Of a stretch of 37,687 nt of DNA, positions 62 to 33,719 are shown piece by piece. Each line of letters begins with the position of its first letter. Position 1 is the stretch's first letter. Made by a program: the position numbers and the translations under genes. The stretch is from NCBI GenBank assembly GCA_032718475.1, contig JAUCBJ010000849.1, positions 1 through 37,687 on the forward strand, written 5' to 3'. Origin of the DNA: Nemertoderma westbladi (Eukaryota > Animalia > Xenacoelomorpha). Under the pieces are notes generated by a model that worked only from the letters and a program-made list of their open reading frames with translations, did not search any database and had not been told where the DNA came from.

Positions 62-170
62 TTGGTAATGGATCCATTAGTTTATCCTTTCTATGTCTTT
101 CCATGTGACGAGATAGATTGTCTTGTCTCATTTCTTTATTACAAACCAAACATCTTTCATAACTAGGCAT
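62..170 (-). pseudogene. Truncated 5' copy of the C2H2 zinc-finger/acidic ORF (35085..36053)
   Basis: Reverse complement of 62-170 encodes MPSYERCLVCNKEMRQDNLSRHMERHRKDKLMDPLP, then similarity stops at unrelated sequence (1-61). Confidence 0.85.
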
Positions 171-1541
171 TATATAGCAATGTCAATTGATATTATGAAT
201 TTTCGCTGAATGATTTTACAAAATTTTAAAGAAATAAAACTTTTATGAAAATAAATAAAACTTTTAAAAATAAAATTAGAGAATGAATGGGAATGCGGTG
301 AATGGGGGCTATTATAGAGGGAGGCTAGAATGGAGTTGTGAAAGAAGAATAATCTATTCATCAAAACCAGATGTTTATTATAATTTTCTTAGGCTGTTTG
401 ACATGCAGTATAACTCAATATAGGATTCAATGGGATTAGTCATGCTACGTCTAATAAGAGCCCAAACGGCCACAGATTATTGAGGGATTGAACCAGGGCC
501 AAACTGGCCCATTTTATTTTCTTGAAAGGGTAATTTATGTTTTGGGCCCCGATCGCGTCTTTATATTTCATTCTACCTTTACCTATTGTACGGCAAAAAT
601 AATACAAATGTACTGTATATTGTATTGCATAGTGCCTACAGTATTGTATATTTCATTTGCTGTAGTACAATTTATTCATCTCGCGTCCCTATATGATTGA
701 CTTGTATCAAATTAAATTGCCTTTGGCAACATTATTTGATACAAATAGATTGATTAAACAATTAATTAATTGTTTAATCGACCAATTAATTAATTGTTTA
801 ATTAATTAATGACCTACTTAACACCTAAGGTGTGAAGTTGGTCCAATTGTCGCCAAGAGTGGCATACTCTTACTACAGTACTGACCTCAATGGTTTTCTC
901 GACCCAAAATGATACTCAACTCACAGACACGATATCTTATTTTACTGCTAATGTAACATATAATGAATTCACTATCTGGTAATTCAGTGACGTAATGCAG
1001 TGACCTTCCTTCAGAAATTTGAATCAGGTTATATTGGCAACTACACTATAGATATTCAAGAACTATAATAATTTATTTCCTTCACTTTATATGCTAAAAT
1101 GGTTAGGTGGACATGATATATTGAAATAGTGCGGTAATTACTGAGTTAACCAAACACTATTATCCTATCTATTGAACTCGAATGAATAACTTCCCACTAA
1201 TTTATGGAGCGATTAATAAAGTCGATCAATAATATCTTATATCTATTGGACAATTATAAAAATTATTTTGGACCTCTAGATGGCGCTGCGAATTTTTCGA
1301 AATTTGTTGGCTAATGTTATAATTAATTGTTGGCATTATTACTAATATTTCAAATGGTTGTCTTATTCTGTTGATAATAGTAACCATGCGCAGAAAGTGT
1401 AGTTAATTTCATAATAATTATTTATTACATGGGAAAAGTAGAACTTTTATTCATTGTTCTCGAGACATTTTATTTACCGAGCGCCAGCGAAGTTAATAAA
1501 GTGTCGAGAGAATATTGAAAAATAGATGTTCTACGTTTATT
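62..1541. repeat. Left arm of ~1.48 kb inverted duplication (partner 33720-35193)
   Basis: Reverse complement matches 33720-35193 almost throughout; ORF track gives an identical 70-aa ORF at 488..700(+) and 34561..34773(-). Confidence 0.95.
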
Positions 1542-2302: not shown

Positions 2303-2487
2303 AATGGGAAGTAAAACCTGCCTCTGATGGTTTTTTAAGCTTATGAATTACTACAGCTGAACGCACTGGACTAGAGGATTACTGCATTAGCAGATTAGAG
2401 TAGGCTACTGAACTGAACCACAACTATTGAACTACTGGTACAAAACAGCCAGGCCAGACTACTGGACTACAATCAGACAATGCAGCA

Positions 2488-4512
2488 ATGGACCCGGAGC
2501 AAGTAGAGCGAGAGTTCGAATGTTCCGTATGTCTACGACTTTTACATCAGCCACGAGTTTTAATCAACTGCTCCCACTGTTTCTGTTACAAATGCATCAT
2601 CAAATTTTCTATACAACGCGGTGATGGATTTTCGTTGGAATGTCCTCGTTGTCGGAATCCCACCGAGGTAGAGAAACTGGATTCTTTGCCGACTGTAAGT
2701 CATATCATTACCTCTATGATTGATATGATTCGAAAAGAAAAAACATGCGACGAGTGCGGAAAAAACAAAGGAACGAATCCCTGCGAACGTTGCGACACCG
2801 AATTGTGCAGAAAGTGCGAACTTTACCACTTCTGCGTCGCCAATCCACCAAATTCGGGAGCAGCTGGAGAACCGACGGGATGTTGGTCTAATGACGTAGA
2901 TCTCGATAAAAGAGGAGCCGTTGGTGGATCTAAAGAACCGGATCCCGATCTGTGCCTAATGCACGGTCTAAACAAACGCCATTATTGCGAGAAATGCGAA
3001 TGTACTGTTTGTCGCCAATGTCATTCCGTTGACGATGTTTCTAAAGATCACGAGGTCGGGTATTCGAACAAAGTCTGTAATTCAATCAGACGAAGCTTAG
3101 TAGAAGGTCCGGGAAAGTTAAGAACACGATTGGAGACTAAACTAACAGTGTTGGAAGGAATTCTGGGGGATTTAGATGACGTCACTAAAGTTTCATCCGA
3201 CGACATCCGCAAACACTTCCAATATTTATACAACGAATTAAAAGCAGCCGAAGATACAATGATGAAGCAGGTCCGGGATTTAAATACCAAAACGGCGGGA
3301 AAAATATCAGCAGCGCAGGAAATTCTCGCTAATATCGAAATTCCTGAAGAAAACGAATATTATAAGAAGATAAAGAATTCCGAGTTGATCAAGGAAATAG
3401 CGGAAGCCAAGAAGATCCTAAAGAAATACAAAGAAATCGAGCAGCGGATTTCTGAGATCGAAGTTGTAGAGGTACCGGAAATTCGTTTCGTTCCGGTCGA
3501 GTTACAGAAGGGCCTGGAAGGGATTACCGGCCGCGTTGATATTATAGATAGCGGCGATGGAGGAGAGAAGATGGCGGTTCCAGTAGAAGAACTGGAGGTT
3601 GAGAAACGTTTTGACCTCCGCCAATACGAAGATATTTTATTAAGAGATCCGCCGCTAAAGGAAACATGTCGGATCGACTGTCGGAGAATGGGAATCGGTA
3701 AAGTCGGTTCCATTGGTGGTCGTCATGGGAACCTGGGGATAACCGATTCCCTAACTAACAGGATTTGTATTTACGAATTCAACGACGACGATTCTTTATC
3801 TTTACGTGGTGAACCTATTATTATAGAACGCGACTGCAACGCCGAAAAGAAACAGATTAAGTTTCTAGATAATTACTACAAGGAAACCTGGATCGCCGCA
3901 ACGGAAGAATGTGTATTTGTAATAAACCCAGACGGAGGTGATGTCAAACATTTGTGTCTTGGTAAAGAGAGATACCGCGGTCAACCAATAGGCCCAATGG
4001 TCGGTATCCATCGTGATTATCTGCTAACGTCAAACAACTGCGTGATTAAACTGGACCGACGCGATTGTTCTAAGGAATGGATATCCCGTATCGAAGAACC
4101 CGGGAAACTCCTTTCCACTACCAGCTCTAGTTTAATGGGCTCTTTAAACGTCGGATTATTCCAACCTAACGAACATAAGTTATCCATATGTGGCTATAAG
4201 GTTACCGGCACCGGACCCAACGTTACTCTCGTATTAAATAGAAGGAAATCCGTTCTTGATTGCGGTAAATCCATCCCTATTGGTGGGATGGAACTACTGC
4301 GGTATCGATCATTGTATTACTTAGTTCCTCTAGAAGAAGAAGGGAATTATTATCTGGGGGTTTATAAAGGCGATACAAACGGAAATGACGTATCCCGATT
4401 GGCTGCCGTGCCGGTAAACGGGTTTGGTGGGATCGCTACTGTCTATAAAACTCAAGGATTATTTCTGTACGAAACTCGTAGTAACAGTTTACTTTATATT
4501 AAATCTAACTGA
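2488..4512 (+). CDS. TRIM-family E3 ubiquitin ligase-like protein, copy A (674 aa; RING, B-box1, B-box2, coiled coil, probable NHL-like beta-propeller)
   Basis: C3HC4 RING (CSVC..CSHCFCYKC..CPRC), B-box1 (CDEC..CERCDTELCRKCELYH), B-box2 (CLMH..CEKCECTVCRQCH..H), helical charged region, beta-rich C-terminus; uninterrupted ORF with an intact paralog. Confidence 0.92.
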   Translation: MDPEQVEREFECSVCLRLLHQPRVLINCSHCFCYKCIIKFSIQRGDGFSLECPRCRNPTEVEKLDSLPTVSHIITSMIDMIRKEKTCDECGKNKGTNPCERCDTELCRKCELYHFCVANPPNSGAAGEPTGCWSNDVDLDKRGAVGGSKEPDPDLCLMHGLNKRHYCEKCECTVCRQCHSVDDVSKDHEVGYSNKVCNSIRRSLVEGPGKLRTRLETKLTVLEGILGDLDDVTKVSSDDIRKHFQYLYNELKAAEDTMMKQVRDLNTKTAGKISAAQEILANIEIPEENEYYKKIKNSELIKEIAEAKKILKKYKEIEQRISEIEVVEVPEIRFVPVELQKGLEGITGRVDIIDSGDGGEKMAVPVEELEVEKRFDLRQYEDILLRDPPLKETCRIDCRRMGIGKVGSIGGRHGNLGITDSLTNRICIYEFNDDDSLSLRGEPIIIERDCNAEKKQIKFLDNYYKETWIAATEECVFVINPDGGDVKHLCLGKERYRGQPIGPMVGIHRDYLLTSNNCVIKLDRRDCSKEWISRIEEPGKLLSTTSSSLMGSLNVGLFQPNEHKLSICGYKVTGTGPNVTLVLNRRKSVLDCGKSIPIGGMELLRYRSLYYLVPLEEEGNYYLGVYKGDTNGNDVSRLAAVPVNGFGGIATVYKTQGLFLYETRSNSLLYIKSN

Positions 4513-5156
4513 ATCAGCTACACCTATCGATAAATTGAGTTTTAACTCGCTAACTATATATAACTGTTTACTTAACTCTTTCTTTCATTTAATACAGGCT
4601 CCAGTCTATGGCCCCGTATTTTATATATGACTGAGCTACCCCACATAGATATTTAGTAAAGATATGCGAAATTATAAAAAATTGTCACCAAACCGGTTCC
4701 GCTGGTTTTTTAGAGGGTCTTAAACATAGCAACGGAGGAAATCCCCATAGCAACAGCTCTTATAGTAGATATGATGAGTTACAATTTATGGAAGATTATT
4801 ATTTTGGATACGAAGAATTTAAGGGCATATTTCGTTTTTTTGAAAATCCCATAGCAACCAAGTGAAAACGACCTTCAATATTAGCTTTATTGATAATGTC
4901 CTTAGCAACGGACTAACGTAATTTCGGTGTTTTTAACATTATGATTCCGACATTTCGTAACAGAATAATTTTATAGTTGTGACATTTTTTATTGAAATTT
5001 TTTATTAAATTATGAAAATATAATAATGTGACATTCATTAATTTCGCGATTTATGCGAGTGACATGCTATTTATAAGTAATATAAATGGTTATAAATAAA
5101 TTATTTATTACATAATAAATACGCTTTTGGCCGCTTTCGTTCATATTATTTTTAAT

Positions 5157-5465
5157 ATTTATCAACTCCAATCGATAGATTAGGTGTTTACGCAACTAAA
5201 TATGTATCATTTATAACATTTATCAACTCCAATCGATAGATTAGGTGTTTACGCAACTAAATATGTATCATTTATAACATTTATCAACTCAAATCGATAG
5301 ATTAGGTGTTTACGTAACTAAATATGTATCATTTATAACATTTATCAACTCCAATCGATAGATTAGGTGTTTACGCAACTAAATATGTATCATTTATAAC
5401 ATTTATCAACTCCAATCGATAGATTATGTGTTTACGCAACTAAATATGTATCATTTATAACATTT
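5157..5465. repeat. 61-bp minisatellite, 5 copies
   Basis: Unit atttatcaactccaatcgatagattaggtgtttacgcaactaaatatgtatcatttataac, contiguous with no spacers. Confidence 0.95.
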
Positions 5466-6630
5466 CATGTCGATGACTCAGTTTTATTCAGGTTTTAATG
5501 GAAATATTCTGGGGTCACGCCAATTCACACAGAAACACGATCTCCTTAAAATGTGACTTCCCGTAGGTTTCATCAAGAGTTCTTTGCGTATAAAGATAGA
5601 TAATACTCTTAGCTTTCGAATGCACTAAATATCTCAGAATTTCATTAACATGGACTCGAGTTATTAAGGATTTCCTGAAAAAATTACACATTTTAACTAA
5701 TTTTCATAATATTTGAGTATTACAGTATAATTTTGCATTGTATATCTCTGTTGCCATGGCAACTGCTGTATGAATTGAATAGAAGCACTTCTAACTCAAT
5801 AGGTATTCCTCACCGCGGTTGTAAATTGTTGTGTTTCCACAGTAAATAGACCGTTTTAGACGCGGTAAAAATTGTCTAGGGTCCCAAAGTAAGTGTGACA
5901 TGTTGCCAATGGCAACGCCTCAAGCTAATTTAGCAAGGTTTCTATAAAATTATTACAAAATATTTGTTAAAACAAATATAACTTGCATCCAAAATGTCAA
6001 TGCGTTGCCTCATTGTATGTCGGTTGAAAGATTACAGTATGTCTGGGTAGTTGGTAGACATACATGTGTGAAGTTGGTAAGACTATGCAGTCCGTATCCA
6101 TGGCAACAGATGTGTATTCCTGTACATACAGTGGCAACGGAAGAAGGGTTGGTTGGTTTTCGTTTAAAACATGTACATAGACCTGCATTGATTATTATAA
6201 TTATGTGATATACTCAGGGACCACACCTTAGCAACAGGGGGTCTTTACCATAGCAACAAGTTATACTCCATAGCAACCATCACGCAGTTACTGAAATCAG
6301 TAGAAAATGTTTGTCATACTTACTAGGCAATATAGGTGATAGACTGACAATAAGTTGGCAATATTCAGTAGTCATTTTCCACATAGCACCAATTTTATTG
6401 CACAGCAACGGATGAACGATTAGTTGGTTATTGGTGAAAATTTGAATGTGGACCTTTTTTTGATTACACATTATATATTTGACGACCACACACCGTAACA
6501 ACAGGGGTTTGTTTCCATAGCAATTAGGTATCATCCATCCATAGTAACGAGAAAGCAGTTGGCTGATATTAGTTGAAAAAGTGTTAGTTCTGTTGTTGAA
6601 ACAATGTTTATTTGCAAAATATTTTGATGG

Positions 6631-7330
6631 TGTGGCGGTGCCACTTACAAACTATGCGTAGCTGCGTAGGGCATTTACAGACTCAGACAGAGTGACTTGA
6701 GATATACTGCTTACCGGTATCGCTCTGCTAAGGTTTTGAATATACGTATACAGATGTTGTCTGGATACAGCAGTACAGCACAGTTAGCTGGATAGTCAGA
6801 CAGTGACTTTTGCATACTGCCACATTGCATGGTGACCTTACTGCTCATCACGATTTGTTGAGCCGAACTGAAACTCGCACCCCACCCCAGCGCCTTCACC
6901 GTGGCTGAGGCAAATGCCGTTGCCTTGAAACTGTCCGCCTTCTGGACTAACCAGCCCGAGGTCTGGTTCGCACAGGCCGAGGCACAGTTCGCCACCCGGG
7001 GCGTCACAGCCGAAGCCACGAAGTACTACTACTGGTAGGGGCCCTCGACCAAGACACCGCCAGCCGCCTCCTCCAGCTGATCCAAGACGCCCCTGCTGTC
7101 AACCAGTACCCAGTACGCCCAGATCAAGGCCAAACTCCTCAAGGTATTCGGACTCTCCCGCCGCGACCGCGCCGTGCGGCTCTGGGACTTGAATGGCCTC
7201 GGTGACGACCGCCACTGCCTGCTGTTCGAGGAGGCGTTCCTCCGCCAGATGCCCGACGCCATCCGCCTCCAACTCGCCGAGGAGGACTTCCGCGACCTCG
7301 ACCGCGTCGCGGACCGGGCCGACGCGCTTT
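6631..7330 (+). mobile_element. gag: Truncated Ty3/Gypsy element (CsRn1-like): 5' LTR 6631-6824, partial tRNA-Trp-type PBS 6830-6837, decayed gag from 6901
   Basis: LTR ends TGTGGCGGT...ACTGCCACA (inverted, TG..CA), TGGTGACC follows; gag N-terminus AVALKLSAFWTNQPEVWFAQAEAQF..TKYYY; frameshift and stops at 7036/7078. Confidence 0.8.
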
Positions 7331-9324
7331 GGTTAAACAAAGAGGTCGATAAACAGAAGTCAAAGAACAATGAATTACGGGAGAAGAACTGGAAGATGAT
7401 GGAGCAGTTGAATCAACTAGAAGCAGCTCGGAAGGATGGTGACGTTAAGGTATCGCCATTATTTTATGTTCCCTTTCCCAGTATAACAAATGGATTTAAG
7501 TTGATTTTTTATTTTACTTAATTTAATTACGTAATCAATAAATGGGTGGTTGTCCGGCATAGTTATGTGATTTTTCCGGAAATATGTTTTTTCAATTTCC
7601 TGAAATTTCCGGATAAGTATACTTCACCCGTGTAGTAAAGACCACAAGGAGCCAAAACAACGAACCGCCTCAACACAACGAGGATGGAATCACTTCTTTC
7701 TAGTGTTATTTACTCTACTTGTGTTTTCCTATTTGTTTTTAGAATGATTGTGTATAAACTGGCCAAATTGTAGGTAAAATCGTAAAAGATTTAAAATTGA
7801 AAATGTATTAATTTCCGAAATTGCGTTAAATATAAAATATATAACAATGAAATGCCAAAACACAAAGTCACAATCACAATTTTAGTTCAAATATTATTAT
7901 TACATTTTATGCAATTAATAAGAAGTTATTCTGTAAATATTTCCTATTAAAAGTAAATTTTATAATACTGTACATTATTAATAAAATAGGAAATTTCCGG
8001 AAAAATGTCTCGGAAAGTTTCTTTATTTTCCTTACATTTCCCAAGTCCTTCAATATGCAGACACCGCACAGCACGAACGACGACCTCCATGGAGACAGTG
8101 TTGGACTAGAGGAGAGCGACCTGCCTCCTTCGGTGACCGCCGCCCAAAACAACACGAAGCCCTTCTCAATATATATTATTTATTCAGCCACCCGTTCTAT
8201 ATGTTATATGTCCCTTTTATTCTCAATTGTTTTTAACTCGCTATATTTCCAATACAGGTTGCCGAGGAAGCCCAAAGACGGGCTTTACATGACCAGTACT
8301 CCGTGTTCCAGAAACTATTTCCTGATGTTGATATTCCCGAGAATATTGACCAATGGGACGCCGAGTATGAGGACAAAGTAACCAATTATCTGGAATCCAG
8401 ATTTCTGGATCTGGAAACTCAGATTACCGAGTAAGTGAATGTTAACTTACCCAATCTGGACTCCCGCCTTGTCTCACAAATCTGTACAACTGTTGTGAGT
8501 GAGTGACTTTGGTCCAATGTATAATGTGTGATTTTTTTTCCAATGGTTTGAGTTGATTGCGAACTTTTGGTTTTTTTGTTGTTGTGGTATTTAACAAATT
8601 TGACAATGAAATTTAAACTCTGATGGGTTGCGACCTCTGCTGTTATATTTAACTTTGCAGTTCGCTCCCATATGAAGAATTCCAGGTCTTCCCTAAAAAT
8701 CCTGGTTCCAGAATGGCTGAATCTAACCAAAACAATAAACGAATTAGAATCTGAATCAACTCGTTGTTGATACTCACTTTCCTCTTTTCGTTCCCGAAGT
8801 AAATCTATTCGCATTACAATCATAAAGTTCACATCTAATAATACATTTTTAATTTATTATAAATAATTATAAATTATTATTTTTGTTCATATTTCAATGT
8901 TTCTCACTTATTTTTAATTGTTGATTACAGTTTGCACTCTCGTCTAGCTTCCGCTGAATCCGAGAACAGTAGTCTACAGACCAAATGCGATCAGTTTAAG
9001 TTGGGTCTCGATCAAACTGAAACAATCCTACACGAGCTGGAACCGTCAGTTGATACCGAGCACACCAAATGGAAGGAGGGCATGGACGACTCGGCCATCG
9101 AGTTGGAAGGGACGCGAGCGGAGTTGGAGGCGATAAAAGAGGAGATGGTTGAACTGAGAACGGAGCGGGATATCGCGTTACAGTCTGAACGCCAAGTCGC
9201 CACGCAGTTGAAGGCCCAACTGGCTTCCCCCCACTCGCCCCTAAGGACTTCGAGCGTTTCAGCCGACCAATTAAACGGCTCCGCTGAGGCTATGCTTAAC
9301 GGTGACTCCCAACAGAACAGCTAG
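7330..9324 (+). pseudogene. 3' part of kinectin/ribosome-binding protein 1 (KTN1/RRBP1)-like gene, copy A; exons ~7330-7449, 8258-8430, 8931-9324
   Basis: KNNELREKNWKMME, FQKLFPDVDIP..W, LQTKCDQFK.GLDQTETILHELE.SVDTEHTKWK resemble successive kinectin/RRBP1 C-terminal motifs; GT-AG introns with compatible phases (0, 2); spliced frame open to TAG 9324; AATAAA at 9805. 5' exons absent. Confidence 0.8.
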
Positions 9325-10169
9325 CTATTGGCCGAATCGTAAGGCTGTTTTATTCCTACCGGTTAACCAATCAATCGCGCGTCGATGGTTGTGCTGGTAG
9401 GGTCAACTCAATGTGCTTTATTTATTTGTAGAGGAGGGCGGGTTATTGGAACATTAAGGTGACGAATAGACTGGCGGTTGTCATGGAAACGTTGCTCTAC
9501 GGAGGTTTCAATGGTGGTGGTGGTGGGTGTAAACAATCGTCACATATATTTAACCTTATAGTAAAAGTATTACCACTCAGTTGTATTTCAATTAAATTAG
9601 CCAATGGGTTCTTTTTATTTTTGTGTGCGGTTTGTTTATATTTATCAGAATTAGTTTATCACACTGTCAATAATAACGCATTACTTTAATATCTATCTAA
9701 TTAATTATTAAATTAGAAATTATTTTTCCCTCTTGTTCGAGATTTTTCCCGATAAAATAATTGGTTGTTTTTGGTTAATTTTATCCAATTCAACCATGAT
9801 GTCTAATAAATTGAATTGTCTAAGTTCTATTGTTTATTTCCCTCAACTCGCTTTATTGTCTATCTACCTCGTTCTATTATTTTCCTCAGATGTTTTTAAT
9901 GATTAAAAAATTAATTGATAACCTCACAATCATAGTTGATGACTTTAGATAACCTTAACAGAGCACTTAATTGATTTCTTTTGACACTCTGTAGCTCTTT
10001 GTTAATATTGACATAGCGAGCATGGTGTTCTGTGGTTAGAAAACTTATTTGCATTATTTTGTAAACAATAAACATAATGTTTAAAAAAATCAGTAATAAT
10101 TTTGGAACTGAAGGGCGTGTCCCACCGCCATTATTATAACTTTTGTTGGGCACAGCTTTGCAAAGTCGG

Positions 10170-10241
10170 CGATCCAGGTAGGATCGAACTGGTGACCTCT
10201 GGGTTGAAAGTCTGACGCTCTAACCATTCAGCTAGCGGCTC
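10170..10241 (-). mobile_element. tRNA-derived SINE head / tRNA pseudogene (copy A)
   Basis: Minus strand has A-box TAGCTGAATGG, B-box GTTCGATCC and a CT-TTC-AA loop, but the acceptor stem does not pair. Confidence 0.65.
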
Positions 10242-11732
10242 AGGTAAAAGGTATAGACCTAGAAATACTATCTGATACGTTGTATGTCCGCAACTTACCT
10301 CCTCATGGCCTCCCATCTCTCAATACCATCATATGCTACCACTGTGCTCAACCCTACTGTACTTGGCCGTATTGTCGTCGTTATACGACGTACTTCACTA
10401 CTTGCTCTGTATTCTTTATTCCCCTTGTGAGACTTGCGACACTGTAACTAGAGGGGTGAGCGCTCCCCACGTTATAAATGGAGAAAATCACTAATGCTTA
10501 TACCCGAAACCAACTTTTGTGTTGTACAATTTTATACACTCAAGGGTAAAGTGAAAGTATTGTTGATAGCTGTATCCTAGCAACACTACTAAATACAATA
10601 AATATTTTTGCTCGATTTTTTTTGAGATTAGGCCAACACATTTTTACATTTTATTTTATTATCTTTAAAACAACTTCTTCTTTATTTTATTTATCTATTG
10701 TAATACAAGGCAGGTTCGTTTTTAAAGAGTACAACTACTTAGTTTGATTTCAGTTAGTTTTCTGTTGTAAGAAGGGGATGGAGGATAATCTACTAAGGAG
10801 ATTTACATCCTCGGGCCAAATCTTAGAGGAAGAAATGCCCGGGCGATCTCATAAAGTAGGAAAATACCGACCTTAATGGTTTTCTCGACCCAAAATGATA
10901 CTCAACTCACAGACGCGATATCTTATTTTACTACTAATGTAACATATAATGAATTTACTATCTGGTAATTCAGTGACGTAATTCAGTGACCTTCCTTCAG
11001 AAATTTGAATGAGGTTATCTTGGCAACAACATTATAGATATTCAAGAACTATAATAATTTATCACCTTCACTTTATCTGCTAAAATGGTTAGGTGGACAT
11101 GATATATTGAAATAGTGCGGTAAATACTGAGTTACCCAAACACTATTATCCTATCTATTGAACCCGAATGAATAACTTCCCACTAATTTATGGAGCGATT
11201 AATAAAGACGATCAATAATATCTTATATCTATTGGACAATTTTAAAAATTATTTTGAACCTCTAGGTGGCGCTGCGAATTTGTCGAAATTTGTTGGCAAA
11301 TGTTTTAATAATTAATTGTTGGCATTATTACTAATATTTCAAATGGTTGTCTTATTCTGTTGATAATAGTAACCATGCGCATAAAGTGTAGTTAATTTCA
11401 TAATATTTATTAATTACATGGGAAAAGTAGAACTTTTATTCATTGTTCTCGAGACATTTTATTTACCGAGCGCCAGCGAAGTTAATAAAGTGTCGAGAGA
11501 ATATTGAAAAATAGATGTTCTACGTTTATTCCCATGTGATACGTAATTTTGTTCTTAAATTGGTACTTTTTTCCAATTATTGTACTCTTCAACTCCTGAT
11601 GCTGCCTTACTTAATGTTAAATAAATTATCTATTGTGTAATCCCGATATACTGTACGTGTTTGAATGCTTTATATATATATATCTCTTACCGGTATGCCA
11701 TACTGACTTATGATTATTATACAGATTACACT

Positions 11733-11760
11733 TGGCGCAGTGTGTAGGATACGAACCTAC
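11733..11760 (+). promoter_or_regulatory. Primer-binding site complementary to a tRNA 3' end (Ser-like), extended through the T-arm
   Basis: Reverse complement GTAGG-TTCGTAT-CCTAC-ACACTGC-G-CCA: perfect T-stem, G discriminator, CCA. Confidence 0.85.
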
Positions 11761-11958
11761 TACTGTACTACAGTACTACCTCTGTACCGGTAGGTCTTCC
11801 CTACCCACAGACCCACTACGACTGTACGATGTACTATCTGCTGTATCTGACTGCTGCACTGACTGACACGTCAAGCTGGTAAATAGTACCGGTACTGTTC
11901 AATATTATTTATATTAGCCTATATTCTGATATTGGATCCATTTCTAACACTCTACCGA

Positions 11959-15803: not shown

Positions 15804-16303
15804 AAAACTATCGCATACTACTGTATTAAATAAACACATTACCAAACTCACTACAAAGCGTACTCGTAACCCCCACCCACCCCACCCACCACCAGGGGGG
15901 TATGTGTAATCCCGGTATACTGTACGTGTTTGAAGGCCTTATATATATATCTCTTACCGGTACGCCATACTGACTTATGATTATTATACAGATTACACTT
16001 CTATGAGACTGTATATGGTTTGTAAATATGCTACCCGGGTGTAGCTGAGAATTTCCACCCCCCGGTTAAAATTCACTAGTGTATATTTTAACCCCACGGT
16101 TAGAATTCCAGTTCACTTGGGTATTTTAACCGGGGGTGAGACTACACTGGGTGATTTTTAGTGAAATTTAACCCCCCTCGCCCTCCTCAGTGTATTCTTA
16201 CCCCCCATGGTAATTTAAAGTTCAATATAATTTAAATTCAATATAAACCTACTACTTGTATTTTATTTATTAATCAAGCACGTTAAGTAAAAACCTTACC
16301 GGT

Positions 16304-21417: not shown

Positions 21418-21590
21418 AGCAGCTTAGTCTAGTGGTGATTCCTGGGCTTCCATTCAGGAAGCCTTGGTTCGATCCCTAGATGGGGCAGGACTATTTGGGC
21501 ACTGAGCTTTAAATACTGCAGCCTAGCCCAGCTCGGGCTTTCATCCTTGGATGGTTGGTATAGGGGAACCAAGGCAACTTGGGAAACAAA
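21418..21590 (+). mobile_element. tRNA-derived SINE head and core (Deu/Nin-domain-like)
   Basis: A-box TAGTCTAGTGG, B-box GGTTCGATCCC, then gggctttcatccttggatggttggtataggggaacc resembling the Nin/Deu core (from memory). Confidence 0.6.
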
Positions 21591-22381: not shown

Positions 22382-23167
22382 CGCCCTGGCTGTATTATTG
22401 AGGTTTGTGAATTGAAGAAACGGTAAACTTCAAAGAATTCCCTCCCAGTAGTACGTAGCTAGCAGTTCACAAAGATAATTGGTTTGGCTTGAATGGCTTG
22501 CATAGACTTGACCCACCTAATATAACAGCAATAATACTTTACAAATTAATAGCACCATGCTTTACATTACATAGGTTGTAAAAGTGGTCTTCCAGTTCAG
22601 GTAAAGCAAGGCCATGCATACTGTTCCTACAATGTATAGCCAGCCCATAACTCCATACTACCATACTGCTGCTGATCTGTTGAAGTCAGACAGTATTACG
22701 CCAAGGTGATACCCACCTCCCGCCTACATGGAGCGCGCCCGTGGGAAAGTTTACAGCAATTTTATATTGTGGATGATGGATGGTATGGAGATGGAAGTTG
22801 TGAATGTGGATTCCGCTTGGGGTTATCGAGTGATGACGGCCCTTGTATGTTTTATCGTAACTACTGAACTATCAATTAATAGTAAATCTAAAAAAAATGT
22901 ATTTTTATAAAAAAAAAATTTAATTTTACTCTTTTTATTTTCTTTCTCAAAAAATCTATGATGTGCGGCGCCACGCGCCTCTATTGTGGATCCGCGCCTG
23001 ATGGGGAGTGAAACCGGCCTCTGATGACTACAGCTGAACGCACAGGACTAGAGGATTACTGCATTAGCAGATTGATTAGAGTAGGCTACTGAACTAAACC
23101 ACAACTACAGAACTACCGGTACCAAACACAGAGACAGCCAGACCAGACTACTGGACTACAATCATCA

Positions 23168-25216
23168 ATGCACAATGCGGTAATGGACCGGGAGCAAGTA
23201 GAGCGAGAGTTCGAATGTTCCGTATGTCTACGACTTTTACATCAACCACGAGTTTTAATCAACTGCTCCCACTGTTTCTGTTACAAATGCATCATCAAAT
23301 TTTCTATACAACGCGGTGATGGATTTTCGTTGGAATGTCCTCGTTGTCGGAATCCCACCGAGGTAGAGAAACTGGATTCTTTGCCGACAGTAAGTCATAT
23401 CATCACCTCTATGATTGATATGATTCGAAAAGAAAAAACATGCGGCGAGTGCAGAAAAAACAAAGGAACGAATCCTTGCGAACGTTGCGACACCGAATTG
23501 TGCAGAAAGTGCGAACTTTACCACGTCTGTGTCGTCAATCCACCTAATTCGGCATCAGCTGGTGTACCGACGGTATGCTGGTCTAATGACGTAGATCTCG
23601 ATAAACAAGGAGCTGTTGGTGGATCTAAAGAACCGGATCCCGATCTGTGCCTAACCCACGGTCTAAACAAACGCCATTATTGTGAGAAATGCGAATGTGT
23701 TGTTTGTCGCCAATGTCATTCCGTTGACGATGTTTCTAAAGATCACGAGGTCTGGTATACGAACGAAGTCTGTACTTCAATCAGACGAAACTTAGTAGAA
23801 GGTCCGGGAAAGTTGAGAACACGATTGGAGACTAAACTATCAGTGTTGGAAGGAATTCTGGGGGATTTAGGTGACGTCACTAAAGTGTCAACCGACGACA
23901 TCCGCAAACACTTCCAATATTTATACAACGAATTAAAAGCAGCCGAAGATACAATGATGAAGCAGGTCCGGGATTTAAATACCAAAACGGCGGGAAAAAT
24001 ATCAGCAGCGCAGGAAATTCTCGCTAATATCGAAATTCCTGAAGAAAACGAATATTATAAGAAGATAAAGAATTCCGAGTTGATCAAAGAAATAGCGGAA
24101 GCCAAGAAGATTCTAAAGAAATATAAAGAAATCGAGCAGCGGATTTCTGAGATCGAAGTTGTAGAGGTACCGGAAATTCGTTTCGTTCCGGTCGAGTTAC
24201 AGAAGGACCTGGAAGGGATTACCGGCCGCGTTGATATTATAGATAGCGGAGATGGAGGAGAGAAGATGGCGGTTCCAGTAGAAGAACTGGAGGTTGAGAA
24301 ACGTTTTGACCTCCGCCAATACGAAGATATTTTATTAAGAGATCCGCCTCTAAAGGAAACATGTCGGATCGACTGTCGGAGAATGGGAATCGGTAAAGTC
24401 GGTACCATTGGTGGTCGTTATGGGAAACTGGGGATAACCGATTCCCTAACTAACAGGATTTATATTTACGAATTCAACGACGACAATTCTTTATCTTTAC
24501 GTGGTGAACCTATTATTCTAGAATCCGACTGCAACGCCGAAAAGAAACAGATTAAGTTTCTAGATAATTACCCCAAGGAAACCTGGATCGCCGCAACGGA
24601 AGAATGTGTATTTGTAATAAACCCAGAAGGAGATGATGTCAAACATTTGTGTCTTGGTAAAGAGAGATACCGCGGTCAACCAATAGGCCCAATGGTCGGT
24701 ATCCATTGTGATTATCTGCTAACGTCAAACAACTGCGTGATTAAACTGGACCGACGCGATTGTTCTAAGGAATGGATATCCCGTATCGAAGAACCCGGGA
24801 AACTCCTTCCCAGCGGTATTTTACCGGGCTATTTAGCCGTCGGATTATTCCAACCTAACGAACATAAGTTATCCATATGTAACTATTCCGCTACCGGTTC
24901 CAGACCCAACGTTACTCTTGTATTGGAAGAAAGGATATGCGTTATTGGTTGCGGTAAATCCGTCCCTATTGGGGCGGTGGAACTACTGTCGTATCGATAT
25001 CCATCATGGCATTACTTAGTTCCTCTTGAAGAAGAAGGGAATCATTATCTGGGGATTTATAAACACAATCCATTCGGAACTAAAGTATCCCGATTGGGTG
25101 CCGTGCCGGTAAACGGGTTCGGTGGGATCGCTACTCTGTATAACTGTGGAGAAACAAAAGGATTCTTTCTGGACGAAACTCGTAGTAACAGTTTACTTTA
25201 TATTAAATCTAACTGA
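23168..25216 (+). CDS. TRIM-family E3 ubiquitin ligase-like protein, copy B (682 aa; homologous ATG at 23183)
   Basis: Same RING/B-box/coiled-coil motifs as copy A; uninterrupted ORF; only frame-preserving indels relative to copy A. Confidence 0.92.
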   Translation: MHNAVMDREQVEREFECSVCLRLLHQPRVLINCSHCFCYKCIIKFSIQRGDGFSLECPRCRNPTEVEKLDSLPTVSHIITSMIDMIRKEKTCGECRKNKGTNPCERCDTELCRKCELYHVCVVNPPNSASAGVPTVCWSNDVDLDKQGAVGGSKEPDPDLCLTHGLNKRHYCEKCECVVCRQCHSVDDVSKDHEVWYTNEVCTSIRRNLVEGPGKLRTRLETKLSVLEGILGDLGDVTKVSTDDIRKHFQYLYNELKAAEDTMMKQVRDLNTKTAGKISAAQEILANIEIPEENEYYKKIKNSELIKEIAEAKKILKKYKEIEQRISEIEVVEVPEIRFVPVELQKDLEGITGRVDIIDSGDGGEKMAVPVEELEVEKRFDLRQYEDILLRDPPLKETCRIDCRRMGIGKVGTIGGRYGKLGITDSLTNRIYIYEFNDDNSLSLRGEPIILESDCNAEKKQIKFLDNYPKETWIAATEECVFVINPEGDDVKHLCLGKERYRGQPIGPMVGIHCDYLLTSNNCVIKLDRRDCSKEWISRIEEPGKLLPSGILPGYLAVGLFQPNEHKLSICNYSATGSRPNVTLVLEERICVIGCGKSVPIGAVELLSYRYPSWHYLVPLEEEGNHYLGIYKHNPFGTKVSRLGAVPVNGFGGIATLYNCGETKGFFLDETRSNSLLYIKSN

Positions 25217-25858
25217 ATCAGCTACACCTATCGATAAATTGAGTTTTAACTCGCTAACTATATATAACTCTTTACTTAACTCTTTCTTTCATTTAATACA
25301 GGCTCCAGTCTATGGCCCCGTATTTTATATATGACTGAGCTACCCCACATAGATATTTAGTAAAGATATGCGAAATTATAAAAAATTTTCACCAAACGGT
25401 TCCGCTGGTTTTTTAGAGGGTCTTAAACATAGCAACGGAGGAAATCCCCATAGCAACGGCTCTTATAGTAGATATGACGAGTTACAATTTATGGAAGATT
25501 ATTATTTCGGATACGAAGAATTTAATGACATATTTCGTTTTTTTGAAAATCCCATAGCAACCAAGTGAAAACGACCTTCAATATTAGCTTTATTGATAAT
25601 GTCCTTAGCAACGGACTAACGTAATTTCGGTTTATTTTACATTTCGATTCCGACATTTCGTAACAGAATAATTTTATAGTTGTGACATTTTTGATTAAAT
25701 TTTTTATTAAATTATGAAAATATAATAATGTGACATTCATTAATTTCGCGATTTATGCGAGTGACATGCTATTTATAAGTAATATAAATGGTTATAAATA
25801 AATTATTTATTACATAATAAATACGCTTTTGGCCGCTTTCGTTCATAATATTTTTAAT

Positions 25859-26345
25859 ATTTATCAACTCCAATCGATAGATTATGTGTTTACGCAACTA
25901 AATATGTATCATTTATAACATTTATCAACTCCAATCGATAGATTAGGTGTTTACGCAACTAAATATGTATCATTTATAACATTTATCAACTCCAATCGAT
26001 AGATTAGGTGTTTACGCAACTAAATATGTATCATTTATAACATTTATCAACTCCAATCGATAGATTAGGTGTTTACGCAACTAAATATGTATCATTTATA
26101 ACATTTATCAACTCCAATTGATAGATTAGGTGTTTACGCAACTAAATATGTATCATTTATAACATTTATCAACTCCAATCGATAGATTATGTGTTTACGC
26201 AACTAAATATGTTTCATTTATAACATTTATCAACTCCAATCGATAGATTATGTGTTTACGCAACTAAATATGTATCATTTATAACATTTATCAACTCCAA
26301 TCGATAGATTAGGTGTTTACGCAACTAAATATGTATCATTTATAA
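25859..26345. repeat. 61-bp minisatellite, 8 copies
   Basis: Same unit as 5157-5465. Confidence 0.95.
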
Positions 26346-27111
26346 AGAGTTCTTTACATATAAAGATATATAATACTCTTAGCTTTCGAATGCACTAAAT
26401 ATCTCAGAATTTCATTAACATGGACTCGAGTTATTAAGGATTTCCTGAAAAAGTTCCACATTTTAACTAATTTTCATAATATTTGTGTATTACAGTATAA
26501 TTTTGCATTGTATATCTCTGTTGCCATGGCAGCTGCTGTATGAATTGAATAGAAGCACTTCTAACTCAATAGGTATTCCTCGCCGCGGTTGTAAATTGTT
26601 GTGTTTCCACAGTAAATAGACCGTTTTAGACGCGGTAAAAATTGTCTAGGGTCCCAAAGTAAGTGTGACATGTTGCCAATGGCAACGTCTCAAGCTAATT
26701 TAGCAAGGTTTCTATAAAATTATTACAAAATATTTGTTAAAACAAATATAACTTGCATCCAAAATGTCAATGCTTTGCCTCATTGTATGTCGGTTGAAAG
26801 ATTACAGTATGTCTGGGTAGTTGATAGTCAGACATATGTGAAGTTGGTAAGACTATGCAGGCAGTATCCATGGCAACAGATGTGTATTCCTGTACATACA
26901 GTGGCAACGGACGAAGGGTTGGTTGGTTTTTGTTTACAACATGTACATAGACCTACATTGATTATTAGAATTATGTGATATACATAGGGACTAGACCATA
27001 GCAACAGGGGGTCTTTACCATAGCAACAAGTTATACTCCATAGCAACCATCACGCAGTTACTGAAATCAGTAGAAAATGTTTGTCATGCTTACTAGGCAA
27101 TATAGGTGATA

Positions 27112-29005
27112 CTACTACTACTACTAGGTCGAGCGAACTCGGACAGTGGAAATGAGATCCTTCCAGGCTTCCCGATTCTCCATAGTTGTCGCAATTTCGT
27201 TTCTCCCAAGTTCAGTATCCCTTTCAAGTTGATCTATATATGTTATGGCAGGTCGTCCACGACTACGCTTTCCATGAGTTGGTTGCTAGAGAAGTAGATC
27301 TGGTATGACCTCGTCTTTACTTCGCCAGCAGTGCCCACTGAATCTTAATCTGCGTTCACGGAGGGTGGTTGATACAGGTGGTATTGTAGCATAAAGCTCG
27401 GCGTTTGTCATGTGTTGTCTCCAGCTGATGTTTAGGGCTGCCCTTAGTAGTCTTGTGTAGCAACCATCAATTCGTTGTTCAAGTGATTTAGTCAGTGTCC
27501 AGGTCTCACCCCCGTATAAAAATACACTTTCCACTGTGGCTCGAAAGAACTTAGTCTTCAGGTGCCTGGAGAGATCTGATTTCCAGATGGTATCCATTTT
27601 TGATAGAGCTACCCAAGCCTTTGCTTTCCTAACTTCTATGTCCTTTTTGCTACTCTCTATCCATGATCCAAGGTACTGGAAGTCATCGACCTTCCTTAGT
27701 TGATTATTATCAATGGTTGTAAGTTTCCATCAACATTAAAGGTCATGAATTCGGTCTTGGTAGCATTTATATGCAATCCAACCTCCTTAGCAGCCCTCTC
27801 CACTTTATTTAGTAGAAGCTGTGCATCTGCTAGCGTATTAGAGAGCAGGGCGTTGTCATCCGCAAAGTCGGTGTCTGTGACTGTAGTTGCCGGATATCTA
27901 CTACTTCTGCGTTCTTGAAGTGTGAATCCCAGATCTTCACCCTTTGTGACCGTCCTCATTGCGTAATCCAGCACAATTACAAATAGTAATGGTGCTAATG
28001 TGTCACCTTGCAGTACGCTAGCCAGGATTGAGAAAAACTCAGTTTCACCATCTGGTGAGAGTACCTGCGCTTCTGTGTCACAATATAACAATCCAATGCC
28101 AGCAACAGTTACTTCTGGTATTCCATAAGCTCTTAGGATTTCAAGCATTTTACCTCTATGGATGGAGTCGAATGCCTTCTTGAAGTCCACAAAAGTCATG
28201 ACTGCGGGGAGATTCTTTGACTTAATTCCTTCAATCAGTCTCCGTAGTGCAAGTATCTGAGCTATTGTTGATCTACTTGGTCGAAATCCGTTTTGGCTCT
28301 TACGCAGTAGTTTCTCTATGTGAGGCCTAATCCTATATAGAATCATTTTATTGTATATTTTGGAAGCTACCACAAGCAGACAGATCCCACGATAGTTTGT
28401 TGGTAAGCCGAGGTCTCCTTTCTTGGGGAGAGGCTTTAGTTGACCTTTAGTCCAAATTGGTGGTGGCTTTTCCCCTTTTAACATCCGTTTGCAAACATTC
28501 AATAATGGTCTATTTAGCACTCCGGTTTTCCATACCTCCGCTGGGATTTCATCTAATCCACTCGCTTTATTATTGGACATGCTTTTAATGCTTCTTTGGA
28601 GTTCGGCAGGTGTGAAGTCCCCTCTCTCTATAGGTAGTGTCTTGTCATATATTTTCCTTGTAGGGCTGACCTCGATGTTTGGTGGCTGCCCAAGCAAGTT
28701 GCTGAAGTGATTTTTCCACTTCCCAACACGTTCTTCAGGACTATCGGCTTTGAGGCCCCCCTTTGCACAACTTTTCAGACCAGATACCTCATTTACAGTT
28801 TGCCAGGTAAGTCTTGATTGTTGCTGTATGTGAGCAGTTGTAATTGCTTCAGTTTTATTCTGTATGTACTTTTCCTGGCTGATGTTGTAGGCCAATTTAA
28901 GATCGTCCTTAGCTTTCTCAACCTTGTTAATGTTTTCGGTTGTTGGTTGTTCGGTTTTAACTTTGTAGGCTATCTTAAGATCTTCTCTCTTACAAGTAAC
29001 CTCAG
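27112..29005 (-). mobile_element. 5'-truncated RTE-like LINE (RT pseudogene), (TAG)5 tail, 12-bp TSD ATATAGGTGATA
   Basis: RT motifs NYRGICL, QNGFRP.RST, DFKKAFDSI, LQGDTLAPLLF, DFADD; frameshift near 27700 and stop at 27286; TSD 27100-27111 and 29006-29017/29029-29040; empty site in copy A near 6330-6341. Confidence 0.93.
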
Positions 29006-29340
29006 ATATAGGTGATATAGATAGATATATATAGGTGATAGACTGACAATAAGTTGGCAATATTCAGTAGTCATTTTCCACATAGCAACAATTTTACATA
29101 TTGCACAGCAACGGATGAACGATTAGTTGGTTATTGGTGAAAATTTGAATGTGGTCCTTTTTTTGATTACACAATTACACATTATATATTTGACGACCAC
29201 ACCGTAACAACAGGGGTTCGTTTCCATAGCAACTAGGTATCATCCATCCATAGTTACGAGAAAGCAGTTGGCTGAGATTAGTTGAAAAAATGTGAGTTCT
29301 GTAGTTCAAACAATGTTTATTTGCAAAATATGCAAAATAT

Positions 29341-30051
29341 GTGCCACTTACAAATTATGCGTAGCTGCGTAGGGCATTACAGACTCCGACAGAGTGACTT
29401 GAGATATACTGCTTACCGGTATCGCTCTGCTAAGGTTTTGAATATCAGAATATACGTATACAGATGTTGTCTGGATACTGGGATACAGCAGTACAGCACA
29501 GTTCACAGTTAGCTGGTTAGTCAGACAGTGACTTTTGCATACTGCCACATTGGTGACCTGACTGCTCAGCACGATTTGTTGAGCCGAACTGACGAACTGC
29601 AACCGGCACCCCACCCCAGCGCCTTCACCATGGCTGAGGCAAATGCCGTTGCCCTGAAACTGCCCGCCTTCTGGACTAACCAGCCCGAGGTCTGGTTTGC
29701 ACAGGCCGAGGCACAGTTCGCCATCCGGGGCGTCACAGCCGAAGCCACGAAGTACTACTACTGGTAGGGGCCCTCGACCAAGACACCGCCAGCCGCCTCC
29801 TCCAGCTGACCCAGGACGCCCCTGCTGTCAACCATTACGCCCAGATTAAGGCCAAACTCCTCAAGGTATTCGGACTCTCCCGCCACGACCGCGCCGTGCG
29901 GCCCTGGGACTTGAATGGCCTCGGTGACGACCACCACTGCCTGCTGTTCGAGGAGGCGTTCCTCCGCCAGATGCCCGACGCCATCCGCCCCCAACTCGCC
30001 GATGAGGACTTCCGCGACCTCGACCGCGTCGCGGAACGGGCCGACGCGCTT
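29341..30051 (+). mobile_element. gag: Truncated Ty3/Gypsy (CsRn1-like) LTR+PBS+gag, copy B
   Basis: LTR end ACTGCCACA 29549, TGGTGACC 29551, ttcaccATGG at 29630, MAEANAVALKLPAFWTNQPEVWFAQAEAQF; frameshift/stop at 29765-29767. Confidence 0.8.
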
Positions 30052-32132
30052 TGGTTAAACAAAGAGGTCGATAAATAGAAGTCAAAGAACAATGCATTAC
30101 GGGAGAAGAACTGGAAGGTGATGGAGCAGTTGAATCAACTAGAAGCAGCTCGGAAGGATGGTGACGTTAAGGTATCGCCATTATTTTATGTTCCCTTTCC
30201 CAGTATAACAAATGGATTTAAGTTGATTTTTTATTTTTCTTAATTTAATTACGTAATCAATAAATGGGTGGTTGTCCGGCATAGTTATGTGATTTTTCCG
30301 GAAATATGTTTTTTCAATTTCCTGAAATTTCCGGAAAAGTATACTTCACCCGTGTAGTAAAGACCACAATAGCCAAAACAACGAACCGCCTCAACACAAC
30401 GGAGAAGGAATCACTTCTTTCTAATGTTATTTACTCTACTTGTGTTTTCCTATTTGTTTTTAGAATGATTGTGTATAAACTGGCCAAATTGTAGGTGAAA
30501 TTGTAAAAGAGTTAAAATTGAAAATGTATTAATTTCCGAAATTGCGTTCAATATAAAATATATAACAATGAAATGCCAAAACACAAAGTCACAATCACAA
30601 TTTTAGTTCAAATCTTATTATTACATTTTATGCAATTAATAAGAAGTTATTCTGTAAATATTTCCTATTAAAAGTAAATTTTATAAAACTGTACATTATT
30701 AGTAAAATAGGAAATTTCCGGAAAAATGTCTCGGAAAGTTTCTTTATTTTCTTTACATTTCCCAAGTCCTTCAATATGCAGACACCGCACAGCACGAACG
30801 ACGACCTCCATGGAGACAGTGTTGGACTAGAGGAGAGCGACCTGCCTCCTTCGGTGACCGCCGCCCAAAACAACACGAAGCCCTTCTCAATATATAATAT
30901 TTATTCAGCCACCCATTCTATATGTTATATGTCCCCTTTATTCTCAATTGTTTTTAACTCACTATATTTCCAATACAGGTTGCCGAGGAAGCCCAAAGAC
31001 GGGCTTTACATGACCAGAACTCCGTGTTCCAGAAACTATTTCCTGATGTTGATATTCCCGAGAATATTGACCAATGGGACGCCGAGTATGAGGACAAAGT
31101 AATCAATTATCTGGAATCCAGATTTCTGGATCTGGAAACTCAGATTACCGAGTAAGTGAATGTTAACTTACCCAATCTGGACTCCCGCCTTGTCTCACAA
31201 ATCTGTACAACTGTTGTGAGTGAGTGACTTTGGTCCAAATGTATAATGTGTGATTTTTTTTCCAATGGTTTGAGTTGATTGCGAACTTTTGGTTTTTTTT
31301 GTGGTATTTAACAAATTTGACAATGAAATTTAAACTCTGATGGGTTGCGACCTCTGCTGTTATATTTAACTTTGCAGTTTGCTCCCATATGAAGAATTCC
31401 AGGTCTTCCCTAAAAATCCTTGTTCCAGAATGGCTGAATCTAACCAAAACAATAAACGAATTAGAATCTGTACAGGTTATCTGACAGAAATAAGAGCTAT
31501 AAAACACTTAAAATAAGGATAATTTAAAAAATACAAATTCTTCCTATATAAAATTCCGATAAATAGACTTACGGAAAATTATTGATAACCTGGATATTCT
31601 TCTCATGATGGGTGCAACTCGTTGTTGATACTAACTTTCCTCTTTTCGTTCTCGAAGTAAATCTATTCGCATTACAATCATAAAGTGAACGTCTAATAAT
31701 ATCAATGTTTCTCACTTATTTTTAATTGTTGATTACAGTTTGCACTCTCGTCTAGCTTCCGTTGAATCCGAGAACAGTGGTCTACAGACCAAATGCGATC
31801 AGTTTAAGTTGGGTCTCGATCAAACTGAAACAATCCTACACGAGCTGGAAGCGTCAGTTGATACCGAGCACACCAAATGGAAGGAGGGCATGGACGACTC
31901 GGCCATCGAGTTGGAAGCGACGCGAGCGGAGTTGGAGGCGATAAAAGAGGAGATGGTTGAACTGAGAACGGAGCGGGATATCGCGTTACAGTCTGAACGC
32001 CAAGTCGCCACGCAGTCGAAGGCCCAACTGGCTTCCCCCCACTCGCCCCTAAGGACTTCGAGCGTTTCAGCCGACCAATTAAACGGCTCCGCTGAGGCTA
32101 TGCTTAACGGTGACTCCCAACAGAACAGCTAG
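30051..32132 (+). pseudogene. 3' part of KTN1/RRBP1-like gene, copy B; exons ~30051-30171, 30979-31151, 31739-32132
   Basis: Same exons, sizes (173, 394 nt) and splice sites as copy A; premature TAG at 30076-30078. Confidence 0.8.
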
Positions 32133-32984
32133 CTATTGGCCGAATCGTAAGGCTGTTTTATTCCTACCGGTTAACCAATCAATCGCGCGTCGATGGTTGT
32201 GCTGGTAGGGTCAACTCAATGTGCTTTATTTATTTGTAGAGGAGGGCGGGTTATTGGAACATTAAGGTGACGAATAGACTGGCGGTTGTCATGGAAACGT
32301 TGCTCTACGGAGGTTTCAATGGTGGTGGTGGTGGGTGTAAACAATCGTCACATATATTTAACCTTATAGTAAAAGTATTACCACTCAGTTGTATTTAAAT
32401 TAAATTAGCCAATGGGTTCTTTTTATTTTTGTGTGTGGTTTGTTTATATTTATCAGAATTAGTTTATCACCCTGTCAATAATAACGCATTACTTTAATAT
32501 CTATCTAATTAATTATTAGATTAGAAATTATTTTTCCCTCTTGTTCGAGATTTTTCCCGATAAAATAATTGGTTGTTTTTGGTTAATTTTATCCAATTCA
32601 ACCATGATGTCTAATAAATTGAATTGTCTAAGTTGTATTGTTTATTTCCCTTAACTCGCTTTATTGTCTATCTACCTCGTTCTATTATTTTCCTCGGATG
32701 TTTTTAATGATTAAAAAATTAATTGATAACCTCACAATCATAGTTGATAACTTTAGATAACCTTAACAGAGCACTTAATTGATTTCTTTTGACTCTCTGT
32801 AGCTCTTTGTTAATATTGACATAGCGAGCATGGTGTTCTGTGGTTAGAAAACTTATTTGCATTATTTTGTAAACAATAAACAAATGTTTAAAAAAAAAAT
32901 CAGTAATAATTTTGGAACTGAAGGGCGTGTCCCACCGCCATTATTATAACTTTTGTTGGGCACAGCTTTGCAAAGTCGGCAATG

Positions 32985-33056
32985 ACATCCAGGTGGGATC
33001 GAACTGGTGACCTCCGGGTTGAAAGCCTGACGCTCTAACCATTCAGCAAGCGGCTC
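32985..33056 (-). mobile_element. tRNA-derived SINE head / tRNA pseudogene (copy B)
   Basis: Paralog of 10170-10241. Confidence 0.65.
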
Positions 33057-33719
33057 AGGTAAAAAATATACCTAGAAATACTATCTGATACCTTGTATGT
33101 CCGCAATTTACCTCCTCATGGCCTCCCATCTCTCAATACCATCATATGCTGCCACTGTGCTCAACCCTACCGTACTTGGCCGTCTTGTCGTCGTTATACG
33201 ACGTACTTCACTACTTGCTCTGTATTCTTTATTCCCCTTGTGAGACTTGCCACACTGTAACTAGAGGGGTGCGCGCTCCCCACGTTATAAACAGAGAAAA
33301 TCAAAAATGCTTGTAACCGAAACCAACTTTTGTGTTGTACAATTTTATACACTCAAGGGTAAAGTGAAAGTATTGTTTATCGCTGTATCCTAGCAGCACT
33401 ACTAAATACAATAAATATTTTTGCTCGATTTTTTTTGAGATTAGGCCAACACATTTTTATATTTTATTTTATTATCTTTAAAACAAAACAACTTCTTCTT
33501 TATTTTATTTATCTACTGTAATACAAGGCAGGTTCGTTTTTAAAGAGTACAACTACTTAGTTTGATTTCAGTTAGTTTTCTGTTATAAGAAGGGGATGGA
33601 GGATAATCTACTAAGGAGATTTACATCCTCGGGCCAAATCTTAGAGGAAGAAATGCCCGGGCGATCTCATAAAGTAGGAAATTACCGACCTCAATGGTTT
33701 TAAATAATTAATAATAAAC

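Follow-up and report, generated by a model that had tools for sequence, protein, structure and literature searches.

Two tandem genes of Nemertoderma westbladi, here called A and B, appear to be intact members of a birth-and-death TRIM family, in which a fast-changing C-terminal domain, likely a beta-propeller, would let the copies bind different targets, most likely pathogen molecules in the cytosol; a probability of about 0.55 is given to this reading as a whole. The amino acids of the C-terminal domain change faster than the silent sites while the RING finger and the coiled coil are conserved, and therefore each copy likely binds a different target. A pathogen is considered the likeliest driver because of the analogy with TRIM5 and finTRIM, and on that analogy a pathogen target, taken by itself, seems reasonably probable.

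Two TRIM genes in a duplicated unit

The window, that is, the whole stretch of 37,687 nucleotides that was analyzed (contig JAUCBJ010000849.1 of assembly GCA_032718475.1, forward strand), has a background GC content of 30-44%, shows hardly any depletion of CpG in its non-coding DNA (observed/expected 0.8-0.9), which suggests an invertebrate, and contains two copies of a unit of about 8.5 kb, at the start of which genes A and B are located (Table 1). A and B are tandem duplicates within this larger repeated unit. It is unlikely that they are unmerged alleles of one gene, since the DNA between and within the units is different.

Table 1. Coordinates of the two genes, their predicted domains and the repeated unit in the window
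Feature	Position	Strand	Remarks
Gene A	2488..4512	+	674 aa, single unbroken reading frame; coding part needs no intron
Gene B	23183..25216	+	677 aa, intact paralog, single unbroken frame
Duplicated unit, copy A	2347..10883	+	self-BLAST 94-96% in four blocks
Duplicated unit, copy B	23024..33701	+	split by a LINE fragment at about 27111-29063
C3HC4 RING finger, aa 12-55	2521..2652	+	Pfam zf-RING_UBOX 25.7 bits (cut-off 25.2); ligand pattern; identical in A and B
B-box 1, aa 87-114	2746..2829	+	Cys/His pattern; ANCHR-like_BBOX only E 1.2
B-box 2, aa 156-188	2953..3051	+	zf-B_box E 0.0009, 19.8 bits, below cut-off 24.1; ligand pattern
Likely coiled coil, about aa 200-345	3085..3522	+	inferred from position and charged, helix-like sequence
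C-terminal domain, aa 385-674 (290 aa)	3640..4509	+	likely divergent six-bladed beta-propeller; sequence relatives not found
Hypervariable part, gene A	4114..4470	+	predicted blades 4-6
Hypervariable part, gene B	24809..25174	+	counterpart of the hypervariable part of gene A

By their predicted domain order, A and B are TRIM proteins, with a RING finger, a pair of B-boxes and a likely coiled coil followed by the C-terminal domain. The best PDB sequence matches of the RING were TRIM72, TRIM3, TRIM30 and TRIM2, and its zinc ligands are intact, A and B being putative E3 ligases. Pfam rows for the coiled coil were weak (E 0.2-0.4). No signal peptide was evident by inspection of the RING-first N-terminus, and neither frame contains a stop codon.

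Divergence and selection along the protein

The original prediction was that a constant RING and an almost constant coiled coil and linker are followed by an end in which replaced segments alternate with invariant blocks. The details stated were all confirmed: the identity around the RING extends over aa 4-87, aa 238-341 of the coiled coil are identical, and across aa 238-407 the sole residue change is G342D, accompanied by five silent changes (codons 302, 310, 314, 356 and 389). All six replaced segments were found in the hypervariable parts, and the indels of the last ~130 codons are in frame only (-6, +6 and +9 nt). These codons differ by 14.3% (56/393 nt) whereas the 3' non-coding DNA is far more alike (13 substitutions in 629 nt, 2.1%), as had been noticed, and four flank blocks together differ by 2.7% (158/5874), so that the last part diverges at about 5 times the flank rate. 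The alternation itself was only partly upheld: four identical blocks of 10-14 aa are present, but over aa 542-674 the arrangement is not beyond chance (51 runs, p 0.17, runs test). Beyond what had been noticed, all 13 differences in columns 401-540, in the first half of the C-terminal domain, are nonsynonymous and none is synonymous, and the signal therefore spans the whole domain. The B-box region (2830-3100) differs too, with 20 nonsynonymous and 10 synonymous changes (omega 0.67) and every zinc ligand retained; these differences could tune which copies cluster together.

Selection was modeled pairwise, with a codon model on the two full sequences of A and B. Omega was 0.08 for the RING part (p 0.023) and 0.17 for coil and linker at aa 236-384 (p 0.041), showing purifying selection on the RING and the coiled coil, and in the C-terminal domain as a whole it rose to 2.27 (p 0.016), or to 2.47 (p 0.017) once the codons lying within 4 of a gap had been masked. 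The last 131 codons, a part whose boundary was picked after the data were seen, gave 2.17 (p 0.040), and with one dS for the gene 3.6 (p 4e-7), or 3.2 when multi-base changes were permitted (p 3e-5). Within the C-terminal domain alone, permitting multi-base changes lowered omega to 1.97 and significance was lost (p 0.083), and codons with a single-base change were not significant either (34 nonsynonymous to 8 synonymous, p 0.13-0.24). Counts of nonsynonymous to synonymous differences were 23/18 for the RBCC and 61/8 for the C-terminal domain (p 0.0002), and dS did not differ significantly between gene parts (p 0.16-0.41). Positive selection on the C-terminal domain is thus very probable, and the proposal that selection diversifies the domain at the C-terminal end of an E3 scaffold was supported; the opposite pattern, a dN/dS of at most 1 with an equally raised dS, was not what the two copies display.

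The proposal of a larger family was supported by further loop versions, beyond A and B, in contigs from the four runs in which the gene was found, representing at most three samples and three studies, with one run possibly being the window's own source. Contigs matching 4075-4540 numbered 97, 70, 169 and 152 in these runs, and 46, 29, 67 and 72, respectively, were less than 95% alike over that stretch; the contigs pool alleles and paralogs, which are indistinguishable there. At one position three different letters were seen, and the loops came in several lengths; one X1 contig holds a third version of the first loop in which 9/9 letters are nonsynonymous across 7 codons. Among 40 listed of 95 variant rows, scored against the codons of A, 35 were nonsynonymous and 5 synonymous; 21 match the letter of B, and the remaining 19 are all nonsynonymous (p 0.002-0.004), although these new letters are not independent, several sharing a contig or a codon. 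Upstream of 4113, the 26 variant rows are split evenly (13 nonsynonymous, 13 synonymous). Gapped pieces amount to 8 among 32 listed of 492, and all 8 totals are multiples of 3, several of which may be one event. In divergent copies, which are about 84% alike, the gaps add up to 4 and 14 and there are joints that leave out 700-900 bases; some copies are therefore likely broken, which suggests birth and death.

The same divergent copies, with their gap totals and large deletions, bear on relaxed constraint, in which the end of the protein would be dispensable and drift at an omega near 1. Some copies likely do decay, and once multi-base changes are permitted an omega of 1 is not rejected for the domain itself (p 0.08). 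Drift is nevertheless quite improbable as the explanation of the variable end, given that divergence is several times that of the flanks, that frame is kept by the indels in A, B and every gapped piece listed, and that A and B retain identical blocks and open frames.

Gene conversion is improbable in its full form, in which the variable part would be a patchwork of older tracts from distant paralogs with unselected changes, but in a lesser form it likely contributed. Silent divergence is 6% in the coding region against 2.7% in the flanks (p 0.0006), because of which some older or converted tracts are likely; fourfold sites differ at 5/48 in the last part, 1/59 in the first half of the domain directly upstream and 7/135 in the RBCC, and an older tract may therefore add to the divergence. 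There are paralogs with an identity of about 84%. If an old tract had evolved neutrally or under purifying selection, however, its dS should be at least equal to dN, whereas pN is 0.16 and pS 0.09 in the variable part, and neither the first half of the domain nor the new listed letters contain one synonymous change. Conversion moves variants around without explaining an excess of amino-acid changes. Of the patchwise conversion that had been offered as an alternative, the contribution of older tracts thus remains likely and the explanation of the excess falls away, and A and B likely have a patchy history with exchange between paralogs.

The C-terminal domain and its possible variable face

No sequence relative of the C-terminal domain was found among 1.84 billion representatives, no Pfam family up to E 10, NHL and PRY/SPRY included, and no sequence match among PDB structures. 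Homolog searches with the region of the domain, with aa 1-340 and with aa 5-215 (at E up to 10), in which proteins of 370-1180 aa were covered, were blank as well, and neither an exact sequence look-up nor searches of metagenome contigs, viral contigs and plasmids returned a relative. A PRY/SPRY identity for the domain was rejected, the Pfam match being absent. With no sequence relatives in the searched libraries, the structure of the domain would be new information in itself.

This isolation from cellular sequences also fits a gene of viral or large mobile-element origin that diversifies against host targets, as do the intronless coding part and a CpG observed/expected ratio of 1.41 in the coding sequence of gene A (2488-4512) against 0.8-0.9 in neighboring non-coding DNA. 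Such an origin is nonetheless very improbable: no relative was met among the viral contigs searched, the duplicated unit contains ordinary host DNA including a spliced exon, element ends were not seen around the gene, and the tripartite motif often lies on one exon in animals, according to the available part of PMC2533329.

A structural model built without alignment, and hence unguided, consists of all-beta meanders at a pLDDT of 31. Its first seven Foldseek rows are BamB chains, which have a propeller fold (best E 0.021), the best Z was 3.9, and no PRY/SPRY entry was seen among the fold matches listed for this low-confidence model. Blade 1 alone resembles an NHL repeat, and 3/500 shuffles score as high. 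Against 39 prokaryotic NHL propellers, which were left of 43 six-blade stretches, located in 114 frames that came from 124 loci, after L009, L013, L016 and L115 had been dropped, the global score reached a z of 4.1 for A and 3.2 for B, compared with 1.3 for reversed sequences, and block shuffles attained it in 0/100 cases for A and 1/100 for B. A profile comparison with NHL by hhalign was not significant (E 0.09 and 0.037; 3/100 shuffles reach it).

An alignment with all 39 NHL rows (A3) conflicts with the hand register and was set aside; the alignment used (A4) takes the top 8 of the 39 rows by score and agrees with that register at blades 1-4 and 6. The model guided by these 8 rows had a pLDDT of 43, propeller matches at E 4e-6 and a Z of 14.4 (rmsd 2.7, 147 aligned), but it is circular because A4 was picked over A3 for agreeing with the hand register. 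Taken together, these results, weak and in part circular as they are, point to a C-terminal domain that is probably a divergent NHL-like six-bladed beta-propeller. Since the NHL sequence test failed, A and B are filed only as TRIM proteins with a likely NHL-like propeller.

In Brat, as described in the available text of PMC4015489, the top face, which binds RNA, is made up of the b-c and d-a loops, and the bottom of the a-b and c-d loops. Faces were assigned in A and B with strands from the guided model, four of which were placed wholly or partly by hand after the pattern had been seen. Over aa 540-672, A and B differ at 27/67 bottom and 12/66 top positions (Fisher p 0.007), and read-derived changes fall on 23/67 and 7/66 (p 0.002); this bottom-face bias fails a shift control, in which 17 of 132 circular shifts do equally well. 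The variable segment at aa 584-601 sits at the rim or top, and the predicted top half, hand-assigned, has 18 K/R and 17 D/E and is not basic. It had been expected that the variable sites would map to one face of a predicted structure; a lean toward the predicted bottom, opposite the RNA-binding face of Brat, was obtained, but in view of the shift control it is suggestive only.

Relation to known TRIM families

The RBCC-B30.2 families, namely TRIM5alpha/TRIM22, finTRIM, btr and trim35, share with A and B the scaffold, the tandem copies, the gains and losses and the positive selection on the C-terminal domain, as far as the available parts of PMC2657112, PMC3137616 and PMC10709114 describe them. 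By analogy A and B would work like these families, but membership is excluded by the missing B30.2: by Pfam and PDB sequence search they have no PRY/SPRY, and a propeller likely stands in its place. Antiviral cases in the RBCC-B30.2 families have been tested, and an antiviral role of A and B would be a matter of analogy; PMC3137616 cautions, in the part available, that binding evidence is required. The examined invertebrates reportedly lack B30.2 TRIMs of group 2 (accessible text of PMC2533329). The likeness to TRIM5 and finTRIM drawn in the original prediction therefore holds for the positive selection and not for the domain on which it acts. For the same reason its term "undescribed system" was too strong, the evolutionary pattern being already known from TRIM5 and finTRIM and found here on another domain.

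The second relevant group is the TRIM-NHL proteins of class VII, or subfamily C (TRIM2, TRIM3, TRIM32, TRIM71, TRIM56, Brat and Mei-P26), in which the RBCC is followed by a propeller, as is likely in A and B with their NHL-like first blade (PMC3503706, PMC2533329, PMC4015489, each in part). Two of its members, TRIM2 and TRIM3, rank with the best matches to the RING of A and B, and subgroup D is the one TRIM expansion that PMC2533329 names in invertebrates. Unlike this group, A and B lack a Pfam NHL match, and the stretch between coil and domain, about 45 aa, is too short for a filamin repeat, whose length exceeds it. Multiple copies and fast evolution set the family of A and B apart from the group 1 genes, which mammals conserve 1:1, according to portions of the same three sources. 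In contrast to Brat, which binds RNA on top (PMC4015489, available text), A and B have a predicted top face that is not basic and changes that lean to the predicted bottom.

Among invertebrates, TRIM expansions of several to many genes with a proposed immune role include an expanded family of 26 genes in the annelid Enchytraeus crypticus (PMC8460440) and 22 TRIMs in Aplysia (PMC9334734); the accessible portions of these sources give counts only, with neither C-terminal fold nor selection test, and the comparison with A and B is by description. A search of the main texts of mostly open-access literature listed no work in which invertebrate propeller TRIMs were shown to be under positive selection. 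Arms-race TRIM receptors have so far been described in vertebrates on PRY/SPRY, and propeller TRIMs are known as conserved RNA-binding regulators. If true, a propeller TRIM family under diversifying selection would mean that the same sensor design arose on a second fold, and it would be a concrete candidate for varied recognition of intracellular invaders in animals without PRY/SPRY.

TRIM proteins act as coiled-coil dimers that carry a recognition domain at either end; when the B-boxes cluster on a multivalent target, the RING is activated and ubiquitylation follows. In A and B, the coiled coil would likewise form a dimer with a propeller at each end, and since the coil is identical the two could pair, making mixed dimers conceivable. 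The two propellers of a dimer would bind the target by avidity, the B-boxes would cluster the dimers, and the RING would be switched on so that the target is ubiquitylated or a signal is sent. The fixed RING and coil would hold this output constant while specificity is set by the variable domain. Point mutations and in-frame indels in the loops would give rise to new specificities, as likely would exchange between copies, while some copies decay. Because a fixed scaffold contrasts with a small number of variable loops, loop swaps and pull-downs would be easy to carry out.

A more elaborate form of this mechanism is doubtful: a repertoire, encoded in the germline, of cytosolic E3 receptors that are built on an orphan beta-propeller, with the face opposite the usual NHL ligand face diversified (bottom loops and rim, blades 4-6), loop versions swapped between copies, two-specificity dimers via the identical coils and a constant top face that docks a shared partner.

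The main rival to a pathogen target is internal conflict, in which the same diversifying E3 receptors would be directed against proteins of transposons or endogenous viruses, meiotic drivers, or gamete or self-recognition partners. It fits all of the selection evidence equally well, mobile elements (Gypsy, LINE) abound in the region, and known TRIM-NHL proteins reportedly act in the germline and in development. It is nevertheless unlikely, as those positively selected C-terminal domains of TRIMs that have been tested are antiviral (available parts of PMC10709114 and PMC2657112), and surface recognition is disfavored because the RING-first N-terminus has no evident signal peptide.

Several other elements were observed in the window. 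A Gypsy-type LTR element lies between the two units (about 11634-16000) with gag-like, protease/RT-like and integrase frames; it is split into several frames, and its 100-base terminal repeats are 94% alike. The LINE fragment is a reverse-transcriptase fragment on the minus strand, inserted in copy B only. A gene for a coiled-coil protein, represented by what is likely its last exon (8931-9324 and about 31740-32132), was duplicated along with the unit; the exon has a splice-acceptor-like edge at 8931 and no Pfam match at E 0.01, and earlier exons of the gene were not found in the window. Directly downstream of each TRIM gene is a 61-base minisatellite (5144-5465, 5.3 copies; 25850-26345, 8.1 copies), and a 63-base array (21582-22381) lies upstream of gene B. 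A 326-aa frame (35073-36053, plus strand) has a weak C2H2 finger at its N-terminus (E 0.3), and it also encodes a long acidic repeat as well as repeats of 28 aa. The 1.5 kb upstream of this frame and its first codons are repeated, inverted, at the start of the window (62-1541, 98.7%), where a second copy likely extends past the left end, and a further 700-base piece is located at 10865-11572. The right end of the window is occupied by a 9-base array in both orientations (36432-37687).
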